Shown one piece after another: positions 23,809-24,127 of a stretch of 56,024 nt of DNA. Position 1 is the stretch's first letter. The number at the start of each line of letters is the position of its first letter. The notes beneath the pieces are model-generated. The model was not told where the DNA came from. It saw only the letters and a list, made by a program, of their open reading frames with translations, and did not search any database. The position numbers were made by a program, and so were the translations under genes. Source of the stretch: a virus; the IMG/VR virus record IMGVR_UViG_3300027904_000003, positions 1-56,024 of that record; one strand, given 5' to 3'.

Positions 23809-24010
23809 GAATTGTTAACCTAACTTTCCTAACAACCTAACTTAACCTAACTTTCTTAACTTTCCTAACGCTTCACGATTTAAAATTTTATATTCAGTTT
23901 TATTTTTCTAATATTTTGAAAAAATTTTTCGAAAATAAAAATTGAAAGCGTTAGGAAAGTTAAGAAAGTTAGGTTAAGTTAGGTTGTTAGGAAAGTTAGG
24001 TTAACAATTC
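23809..24010. repeat. perfect 64-nt inverted repeat built from CCTAAC/CTTAAC iterons around a 74-nt AT-rich core; candidate origin or architectural element (locus B)
   Basis: 23809-23872 is the exact reverse complement of 23947-24010. Each arm has six (C/T)TAAC-type motifs spaced 8-10 nt apart. The core contains TTTTCGAAAA. Confidence 0.95.
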
Positions 24011-24027
24011 AGATTGGTCAAGATAAA

Positions 24028-24054
24028 ACAGCACTGAACTTAGTTCAGTGCTGT
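24028..24054 (-). terminator. intrinsic terminator ending the upstream minus-strand unit
   Basis: ACAGCACTGAAC-TTA-GTTCAGTGCTGT, followed by TTTTATCT on the minus strand. Confidence 0.8.
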
Positions 24055-24065
24055 GATAATAATAA

Positions 24066-24127
24066 GTAGTAGTAGTAGTAGTAGTAGTAGTAGTAGTAGT
24101 AGTAGTAGTAGTAGTAGTATATATATA
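24066..24127. repeat. compound microsatellite (GTA)18 followed by (TA)5
   Basis: Counted directly: GTA units 24066-24119, TA units 24118-24127. Begins immediately after the stop codon of CDS 24128..24706. Confidence 0.95.

Follow-up and report, generated by a model that had tools for sequence, protein, structure and literature searches.

Facing repeat arrays around AT-rich spacers bracket the replication module of an uncultured 56-kb phage and are candidate replication origins for a primase-MCM protein

Results

Organization of locus B and of its counterpart, locus A

The window analysed here is the whole 56,024-nt genome of a phage known from metagenome assembly (IMG/VR record IMGVR_UViG_3300027904_000003, positions 1 to 56,024), in which nearly all the genes lie on the minus strand. 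The element in question, hereafter locus B, is an inverted repeat at the head of the replication operon; a second, related element, locus A, was found 20 kb away, the two loci bracketing the replication module (Table 1). Read on the minus strand, the stop codon of a gene encoding a 3D-domain protein directly touches a (TA)5 run, which is followed by (TAC)18, a terminator hairpin, the arm-spacer-arm structure, a promoter, a gene for a 124-aa protein and the replication genes. Apart from the 124-aa gene, these elements had been described, in this order, in an initial annotation made from the sequence alone, which gave the repeat as two exactly complementary arms of 64 nt around a core of 74 nt. 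A repeat search confirmed the perfect (100%) complementarity and slightly extended the arms, to 66 nt each, leaving 72 nt between them.

Each arm harbours eight YTAAC pentamers, 16 in total, and these can be read as the six (C/T)TAAC units at 8-10-nt spacing noticed previously. Consecutive pentamers are separated by 5, 9, 8, 5, 5, 9 and 9 nt in the promoter-proximal arm and by 9, 9, 5, 5, 8, 9 and 5 nt in the promoter-distal one. The spacer between the arms contains A/T tracts, with TTTTGAAAA and TTTTCGAAAA, and the promoter scan found no promoter-like site inside it. Neither is the spacer as a whole self-complementary, the repeat search having revealed only short and imperfect internal repeats, and its 72 nt interrupt the dyad symmetry at the centre of the locus, which would run through unbroken in a true long palindrome or cruciform site such as HSV oriL or a telomere-resolution site.

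The arrays stand out from the remainder of the genome. The octamer AACCTAAC is present in 13 copies in the 56 kb, against 2.0 ± 1.5 expected, and all 13 are located inside locus A or locus B, each of them aimed at the spacer. In both loci the motifs of the left array are on the plus strand and those of the right array on the minus strand, so that an AT-rich spacer is faced from both sides. When this arrangement was formulated as a signature (an AT-rich gap of 60-120 nt with, to either side, at least three CYYAAY motifs at ~9-bp intervals), the two array loci were the only matches in the genome.

The left array of locus A contains four copies of AACCTAAC plus CTTAAC, its spacer is AT-rich (19% G+C), and its right array consists of two copies of GTTAATAA, one GTTAAG and three copies of GTTAGGTT. 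What the two loci have in common is limited to such short motifs. Locus B had been described as the mirror image of locus A, and this holds for the microsatellite, the facing arrays and the downstream gene. It does not hold for the arms, which at locus A face each other as in locus B but are imperfect (the best pairs being 26 nt at 88% and 17 nt at 100%), nor for the terminator: the nearest one, at 2594-2618, ends a 286-aa gene and is ~370 nt further off.

Because the sequence is a metagenome assembly, we considered whether the repeat might be an assembly artefact or a chance occurrence, an explanation that can be taken as effectively refuted. A second assembly of the same phage, contig k141_3231951 of ENA ERZ27257344, whose reads are possibly not independent of those used for the first, is identical over 6,375 nt including the repeat and the microsatellite, and the two assemblies thus agree exactly over 6.4 kb. 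Moreover, with 66 nt the arms fall short of the k = 141 implied by the ENA contig name, the same layout recurs in dozens of independent relatives from other samples (see below), and the statistics, both of the octamer count given above and of the predicted fold described below, are extreme. Rfam and tRNA scans of the whole window gave no matches, indicating that locus B is not a known RNA gene.

Conservation of the arrays in uncultured relatives

A near-identity search with 10 kb of the genome gave no match among cultured phages, the closest of which, Weizmannia phage Youna2 and Bacillus phages BSP7 and BSP19, are ~30% identical at the protein level. The IMG/VR database contained dozens of uncultured relatives with SNF2 proteins 50-72% identical, several of them on contigs of 56-63 kb, and around 50 uncultured relatives showed facing hexamer arrays with ~9-bp spacing around an AT-rich spacer of 60-120 nt, a layout that recurs at both ends of the replication module. 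The locus B layout preceded the early promoter and the 124-aa homologue in almost every relative with enough upstream DNA; among relatives whose upstream region was complete, L214 alone showed no array immediately upstream. Conservation before the 124-aa homologue also extends to the promoter block gaaaatccgtaaggaaagggggTTTAC...TATAAT (ggggTTTAC...TATAAT). With a detector requiring at least three motifs per strand and strands facing each other, relative loci of 7-14 kb typically yielded exactly one cluster in each orientation, the two always making up the facing pair, while the signature defined above was usually found at one locus per relative fragment of 7-20 kb. A scan of viral contigs for three consecutive CTYAAC-N3 units was too unspecific to be used.

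The layout persists down to ~50% SNF2 identity while the motif itself drifts. CTTAAC, CTCAAC or CTAAAC is the motif in most relatives, and the array hexamers found across them include TTATCTCAA and TTTGATAC as well. More divergent versions are TTATCTYAA (L195, L200 and L211), CTTTCTTAC (L182), TTTGATAC / GTAGCAAA (L208) and TTAACTTAA (L201 and L203). The spacers of the relatives range from 65 to 121 nt, mostly with 10-33% G+C (41% in L187), and TTTGAAAA/TTTCAAAA recur in them.

A counterpart of locus A was identified at the far end of the module in six relatives (L139, L141, L142, L144, L154 and L156), lying between the homologue of the 286-aa gene and homologues of the 115-aa or 207-aa zinc-ribbon genes. 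A portal search yielded no relative, nor are the genes upstream of locus B common to the relatives, indicating that the structural module is not shared. It follows that the arrays belong to the replication module, with which they are co-inherited, and that locus B lies at a mosaic junction. The earlier proposal that the element is functional rather than accidental is supported by its position at the head of the replication operon and by its counterpart at locus A.

Two-locus repeats of another kind were noticed in the cultured phages, whose primase-MCM proteins are ~30% identical. Youna2 (L254) has two loci, at 3680-4018 and 36700-37000, that share inverted GGAAAG/GTAAAG pairs with 9-bp spacing, and BSP7 (L255) has two separated loci, at 29776-29960 and 49660-49840, that share inverted GAAAGAAAATG; in both phages one of the loci is directly upstream of a helix-turn-helix (HTH) gene, which is followed by the primase gene. 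Separately, metagenome contigs were searched with the exact arms for strain variants, and the only match was an unrelated element (L256, 2440-2640; L257, 4890-5080). It encodes a VapE/DUF5906 (D5-like, superfamily 3) primase-helicase and a Pox_A32-like ATPase, and carries inverted triplets of the hexamer CCTAAC/GTTAGG amid other repeats (GGTGAGGT and GTCGCCAC, three times each, and TTATCAGTATATA).

Arm symmetry and flanking microsatellites

The perfect symmetry of locus B had been taken as a selected feature, and the comparison with relatives did not bear this out. Over the inner 45 nt, arm-to-arm identity is 1.00 at locus B and ranges from 0.67 to 0.96 in the relatives, and the arms of locus A, as described, are imperfect. 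Mean arm identity is higher within a genome (0.84) than for the same arm between genomes (0.67), and in L200 and L165 both arms have the same irregular order of units. Since such idiosyncratic details are common to the two arms, the arms must have been homogenised against each other. Judged from these alignments, the perfect 66-nt repeat is the extreme of this homogenisation, neither separately selected nor made for a cruciform. Gene conversion or hairpin-templated copying could be responsible, and the exact symmetry would not be needed for the origin mechanism discussed below. It had also been argued that so long a palindrome would be unstable in many bacteria unless selected for. A long central spacer, however, largely removes hairpin-based repeat instability in bacteria, and the argument is weak because the repeat is interrupted by 72 asymmetric, non-palindromic bases.

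These data also bear on the idea that locus B is a structural or recombination site, where a cruciform would be extruded or where a crossover would invert or exchange the 20-kb replication module. The perfect arms would suit such a site, and so would the predicted fold of the locus as single-stranded DNA (-81 kcal/mol, versus -18 ± 3 for shuffled sequences; z = -19), its position at the mosaic boundary where a conserved replication module meets a structural module that is not shared, and the weak endonuclease VII-like and VRR-NUC-like matches found in the module. Nevertheless, the perfection of the arms is not conserved, the 72-nt spacer makes extrusion costly, loci A and B share no long sequence that could serve for crossover, no recombinase was found among the scanned open reading frames (ORFs), and the replication genes have one orientation on all the relative contigs examined. 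We therefore consider this explanation very improbable. No sign was seen of the inversion of the 20-kb segment that had been contemplated initially: the SNF2, primase and PolA genes are co-oriented on every relative contig carrying all three, an observation that concerns orientation within the module only.

Long trinucleotide runs were found in this genome and in none of the relatives. In relatives, 8 of 32 array loci checked lay close to a (TA)5-15 or similar tract, which was mostly promoter-distal. The trinucleotide architecture, believed at first to be a maintained feature, is thus replaced in relatives by short (TA)5-15 tracts or by nothing, and from the sequences the microsatellites are best read as slippage expansions of a short (TA)n flank, which the mechanism proposed below would not need. 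The genome is in any case unusually rich in microsatellites for a phage, having, besides the two long trinucleotide runs, a perfect hexanucleotide one, (TGTTTC)11.3, at 42585-42652 in the late region.

The 3D-domain gene stands alone as a cassette, for which the promoter and terminator scans found a separate promoter (24760-24732) and terminator, and no homologue of it was found upstream of the arrays in relatives. A candidate role for the terminator-like hairpin, suggested by its position, is to shield the array from transcription of this gene. On the other side of the early promoter, a spacerless perfect 36-bp palindrome (AAGTATTACCACGACGAA / TTCGTCGTGGTAATACTT) occupies positions 23239-23274, between the 124-aa gene and the SNF2 gene; in relatives this interval contains a different, conserved hairpin-like repeat, e.g. 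TCGCCGGCTGGTAAAAGTCCTCA.

The replication module and candidate array-binding proteins

The module bracketed by the two loci encodes an SNF2 helicase, a VRR-NUC-like nuclease, a SigE/SigK-like sigma factor, an ATP-dependent ligase, RNase H, a primase-MCM fusion, a YqaJ-type exonuclease, a dUTPase, ThyX, a family A DNA polymerase and an HD-domain protein. In a comparison with PDB sequences, the 987-aa primase-MCM protein matched MCM chains (E 4.5e-10). An AlphaFold2 (AF2) model of its C-terminal 528 residues was obtained with a mean predicted local distance difference test score (pLDDT) of 87, and the top Foldseek matches of this model were archaeal and eukaryotic MCM proteins (E 1.6e-17). Residues 443-494 of the model are arranged as helix-helix-helix-strand-strand, which corresponds to a predicted C-terminal winged helix. 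The scanned ORFs included no Orc1/Cdc6-like protein and a single MCM-class AAA+ domain, that of the primase-MCM fusion, whose gene is followed directly by the next ORF. Based on its modelled structure, this protein is our best candidate for an initiator that would act both as reader of the arrays and as self-loading helicase.

Two other proteins were evaluated. The small 78-aa winged-helix-like protein is conserved in relatives at 47-66% identity, and its sub-threshold family matches make it an alternative candidate array binder. The 124-aa protein, whose gene is the first one downstream of locus B, has 545 homologue clusters, an invariant core and no Pfam domain. Its AF2 model (pLDDT 68) shows only a helical hairpin, with two long helices, and an acidic tail, and has no recognisable DNA-binding fold. 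As it had neither a family nor a PDB match and its model, of modest confidence, contained no ribbon-helix-helix (RHH) or HTH, it was dismissed as the likely array binder.

Table 1 Coordinates of loci A and B and of associated genes in the 56,024-nt window.
Feature	Coordinates	Strand	Description
Locus B, promoter-distal arm	23946..24011		8 GTTAR pentamers in six 8-10-nt units, towards spacer; 100% complementary to 23808-23873
Locus B, candidate DNA-unwinding element (AT-rich spacer)	23874..23945		72 nt, 13.9% G+C
Locus B, promoter-proximal arm	23808..23873		8 YTAAC pentamers in six 8-10-nt units, towards spacer
Locus B, microsatellite	24065-24119; 24119-24128		(AGT)18.3, then (AT)5; Tandem Repeats Finder (TRF), 100% matches, and regular-expression scan
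Intrinsic-terminator-like hairpin	24028..24054	-	12-bp stem, 6 G-C pairs, T-rich TTTATCTT tail
Early promoter, sigma-A type	23721..23749	-	TTTACA-17-TATAAT, 11/12 consensus positions
First early gene, 124 aa	23291..23665	-	Follows array and promoter in relatives (synteny)
3D-domain gene	24128..24727	-	PF06725, E 7.9e-13; last gene before locus B
Primase-MCM, 987 aa	14028..16991	-	DnaG zinc ribbon, Toprim and MCM P-loop domain (Pfam: Zn_ribbon_DnaG, Toprim, MCM)
Small winged-helix-like protein, 78 aa	9611..9847	-	Sub-threshold Pfam matches: TrmB, RPA_C, FaeA winged helices
Locus A	3165..3352		Left array 3165-3218, spacer 3219-3299, right array 3300-3352
Locus A, microsatellite	2997..3093		(AT)14, then (TAT)24; TRF and sequence
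115-aa basic zinc-ribbon protein	3418..3765	+	CxxC...CxxC motifs, KRKRK stretch; candidate DNA binder

Position of the arrays with respect to promoters

Each of the two arrays immediately precedes a promoter at the head of a transcription unit, and this makes an operator or enhancer function a real rival to the origin interpretation discussed below. A phage regulator bound to the arrays would then repress, activate or insulate PB, the replication operon's promoter, and PA, that of the 115-aa gene. Candidates for such a regulator are the 78-aa winged-helix protein and the 115-aa and 207-aa zinc-ribbon proteins, and the two loci might loop together. That small candidate DNA binders are encoded nearby, and that the order of array, promoter and first gene is kept in almost all relatives, would agree with this function; in addition, the two-locus repeats of Youna2 and BSP7 surround promoter-like sequences and precede an HTH gene. 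However, the arrays are centred on the AT-rich spacer and not on the promoter elements. At locus B the -35 hexamer sits 59 nt from the array, which overlaps neither the -35 nor the -10 sequence, and across relatives the distance from array to -35, estimated by eye, varies from 59 to roughly 90 nt. At least eight promoter-like sites of the same class occur elsewhere in the genome without an array. The adjacent 124-aa protein lacks a DNA-binding fold in its predicted model, and the scans of early-region ORFs revealed no repressor of the RHH, ParB or HTH type. Taken together, we regard the operator explanation as unlikely, though serious enough to be kept in mind in what follows.

A centromere-like or genome-organising site, at which filament nucleation or handcuffing would serve partition, condensation or compartmentalisation, was also considered, since the same short repeat occurs at two dispersed loci. 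ParR-, ParG- and omega-type centromeres are typically arrays of 7-11-bp repeats, which counts in favour of such a site. The array, however, is 59 nt off the -35 hexamer and the adjacent protein has no RHH or HTH, an organization that does not correspond to that of an RHH or ParR/omega array, whose repeats overlap or bracket the promoter core and whose binding protein (RHH or ParB) is encoded by the neighbouring gene, usually together with a ParA/ParM partner. In the early region and at the genome ends, Pfam, PHROG and NCBIfam scans revealed no ParA, ParM or ParB family member, and the ORFs scanned gave neither an integrase nor any other hint of plasmid-like lysogeny. A centromere-like function thus appears improbable.

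Surroundings of locus A and other features of the genome

The 115-aa gene reads away from locus A and is convergent with the end of the replication operon; its product had no family match, and homologues of it adjoin the locus A counterparts in L141 and L142. The two convergent genes beside locus A, at 3418-3765 (+) and 3753-4376 (-), both start with similar CxxC...CxxC zinc ribbons and are both conserved beside the locus A counterparts in relatives. The second encodes the 207-aa protein, weakly similar in PHROG to the zinc-binding part of endonuclease VII. Beyond these weak zinc-ribbon and endonuclease VII-like matches, nothing informative was obtained for the 115-aa, 207-aa and 286-aa neighbours. 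A GC-rich non-coding stretch of ~370 nt (2620-2990) separates the 286-aa gene's terminator (2594-2618) from the locus A microsatellite; this stretch had no Rfam match and no DNA-level conservation in relatives; an apparent match with relatives, a shared 17-mer, failed as evidence of such conservation.

A GC-rich 37-nt tandem unit (CGCGGCGGCTAAAAGCTTCGGTCTGCGCAAAACGCGC) is present at both contig ends (1-125 and 55889-56024) and at 881-980, and the ENA re-assembly is 110 nt shorter, i.e. ~3 units of this repeat. Both observations indicate that the genome is probably circular or terminally redundant, the contig having been broken inside the array of 37-nt units, which might be a packaging site, a terminator cluster or something else. 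Finally, a LAGLIDADG / Hom_end homing-endonuclease domain lies within the product of the large terminase gene (49454-51796, 780 aa), at residues 245-307, pointing to an intein or to insertion of an endonuclease, and an HNH endonuclease gene (52125-52727) is found just upstream of the terminase gene.

Discussion

The arrangement described here is best compared with that of replication origins used by self-loading helicase-initiators. The origins of staphylococcal pathogenicity islands (SaPIs) have 6-12 penta- or hexanucleotide iterons, half of them on each side of an AT-rich centre and in opposite directions (PMC9371898). Their Rep protein is a self-loading helicase of superfamily 3 (SF3) or superfamily 6 (SF6, MCM-class) whose C-terminal winged helix binds the iterons and which in SaPI5 is fused to a primase, and one hexamer has been proposed to load on each side of the origin (PMC9371898). 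An origin of this type would further be expected to be bound and melted by its Rep in the absence of ATP, and to support replication as a fragment. Locus B is similar in its short iterons, placed in equal and opposed sets around an AT-rich centre (72 nt, 13.9% G+C), and the phage encodes a primase together with an SF6 (MCM-class) helicase bearing a predicted C-terminal winged helix. It differs from the SaPI origins in having 16 pentamers instead of 6-12, packed at a ~9-bp period, in having a second copy 20 kb away, and in being carried by a 56-kb phage rather than a satellite. The alpha protein of P4 combines a DnaG primase, a helicase and a winged helix in one polypeptide (PMC2777425). The same combination is found in the primase-MCM protein, with the difference that the alpha helicase belongs to SF3 and the one encoded here has an MCM (SF6) fold. 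The P4 ori and crr, both needed for replication, are two separate cis sites with the same octamer iterons, both bound by alpha. The shared iterons are reminiscent of loci A and B, which share AACCTAAC and are both conserved in relatives, although the P4 iterons are not organised as two facing arrays around one spacer.

More distant parallels exist. In oriL and oriS of herpes simplex virus 1 (HSV-1) and in the core origins of polyomaviruses and papillomaviruses, inverted initiator sites flank an AT-rich centre and helicases are loaded head to head; HSV has several origins, of which oriL is a long perfect palindrome beside replication genes. Archaeal origins, composed of inverted origin recognition boxes (ORB) and a DNA-unwinding element (DUE), with the Orc1/Cdc6 initiator encoded beside the ORB elements, load MCM. 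Inverted sites around an AT-rich centre are common to these origins and to locus B. The phage, however, has a bacterial host, no homologue of Orc1/Cdc6, UL9, T-antigen or E1 was found among its scanned ORFs, and HSV oriL is a true palindrome whereas locus B has 72 asymmetric nucleotides in the middle. In the Firmicutes phage SPP1 two distant origins, oriL and oriR, contain the same initiator-binding repeats beside AT-rich DNA, as do the two widely separated loci described here. SPP1 differs in using a separate initiator, G38P, and a DnaB-like helicase with its own loader, and in having direct repeats and not facing arrays.

Considering all of the above, we propose, with a probability of roughly 0.55, that locus B, with its sister locus A, is an iteron/AT-rich replication origin of the kind that self-loading helicase-initiators use, the two being either a pair of origins or an origin and a helper site. 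An origin or protein-loading site was already among the options put forward in the initial annotation, and it is the best supported of them, given the conservation of the layout in relatives and the presence of a primase-MCM protein with a winged helix.

From the anatomy, the conservation and the protein domains reported above we infer binding, melting, loading and a role for locus A, in a mechanism modelled on the domain logic of SaPI Pri-Rep and P4 alpha. A phage-encoded winged-helix reader, for which the C-terminal winged helix of primase-MCM is the best candidate, would bind the YTAAC units, spaced at 8-10 bp, in a cooperative manner. Because the arrays point at each other, two primase-MCM assemblies would face inwards and build across the 72-nt spacer with its 14% G+C; the spacer would melt, and two MCM-type rings would be loaded in opposite orientations for bidirectional synthesis. 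The fused DnaG-type primase would make the primers and the phage PolA would extend them, while the upstream terminator and the early promoter, firing outwards on the downstream side, would keep the site clear of read-through transcription. Locus A would act as a second origin or as a helper site, a part for which P4 crr and SPP1 oriR offer parallels.

Several observations weigh against this proposal. The placement of both arrays just upstream of promoters fits a regulatory role too, and the comparable repeats of Youna2 and BSP7 enclose promoter-like sequences and precede an HTH gene. The primase-MCM gene is away from the arrays, with locus B 6.8 kb upstream and locus A 10.7 kb downstream of it. 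In SaPIs the origin is immediately downstream of the helicase gene, a feature that defines them; as locus B is at the head of the operon instead, it would work like a SaPI origin without being a strict member of that class. SaPI iterons are, moreover, specific to the C-terminal domain of the cognate Rep, whereas the winged helix of primase-MCM is almost invariant across relatives having CTTAAC, TTATCTCA or AACCTAAC motifs, and this near-invariance makes the covariation test uninformative for this protein. The recognition helix of the 78-aa protein does vary (NQNRVR, KASRAR, PQTRAR) while the iterons stay CTTAAC-like, and by eye no correlation was apparent. With neither winged helix varying together with the motif, covariation does not single out a reader of the arrays; a shared core, CYYAAY, could explain the lack of covariation. 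No GC-skew switch was found at either locus, the skew falling steadily across the genome, although this is uninformative because nearly all the genes are on the minus strand. Lastly, a second iteron-like region at 54.4-55.9 kb could be the true origin.

This region is part of an island (54200-55870) that is strongly C-skewed, with a G+C content of 0.29-0.33, and contains small minus-strand genes without family matches. A promoter/5' region is duplicated in it (~54700-54830 and ~55620-55740), and there are 8.4 copies of a 17-nt unit, TCCAATATTACCAATTA, at 55724-55865 and 2.1 copies of a 49-nt unit at 54447-54547. The island is a rival candidate for an origin, a partition site or an operator.

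A more elaborate version of the origin proposal, in which the loci bracketing the module act as a cooperating pair, seems to us doubtful but worth stating. The DnaG-MCM fusion would read the arrays with its own winged helix, load itself as two opposed rings with no loader resembling ORC (origin recognition complex), Cdc6 or DnaC, and connect locus A to locus B, as in handcuffing or in the looping between P4 ori and crr. Hairpins forming again and again where the DNA is unwound would maintain the identity of the arms and give rise to the microsatellites beside them. If this were true, it would provide a bacterial-virus system in which to study the loading of an MCM double ring at a defined DNA sequence.

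The iteron/AT-rich design is in itself known, and would be expected of a phage origin; what distinguishes the present candidate is the MCM-fold helicase and the two copies bracketing the module. To our knowledge, no origin has as yet been assigned to such a phage MCM-fold helicase. Should the arrays be operators instead, they would still define the control region of the early operon in this phage family. The signature of facing arrays could help to locate origins and module boundaries when phage genomes from metagenomes are annotated. Should the arrays be origins, the MCM-fold helicase of a bacterial virus would have a defined and sequence-specific site of loading, a single protein would be initiator, helicase and primase, and MCM self-loading and melting could be studied in vitro without ORC or Cdc6. 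Youna2, a phage of Weizmannia coagulans, and BSP7, like BSP19 a phage of B. subtilis, are culturable and could serve as tractable models. Judging from the 545 homologue clusters of the linked early gene, the system appears to be widespread in uncultured phages of spore-forming Firmicutes, and as an origin it would extend the SaPI/P4 design from satellites to a large and abundant family of uncultured phages of 56-60 kb.

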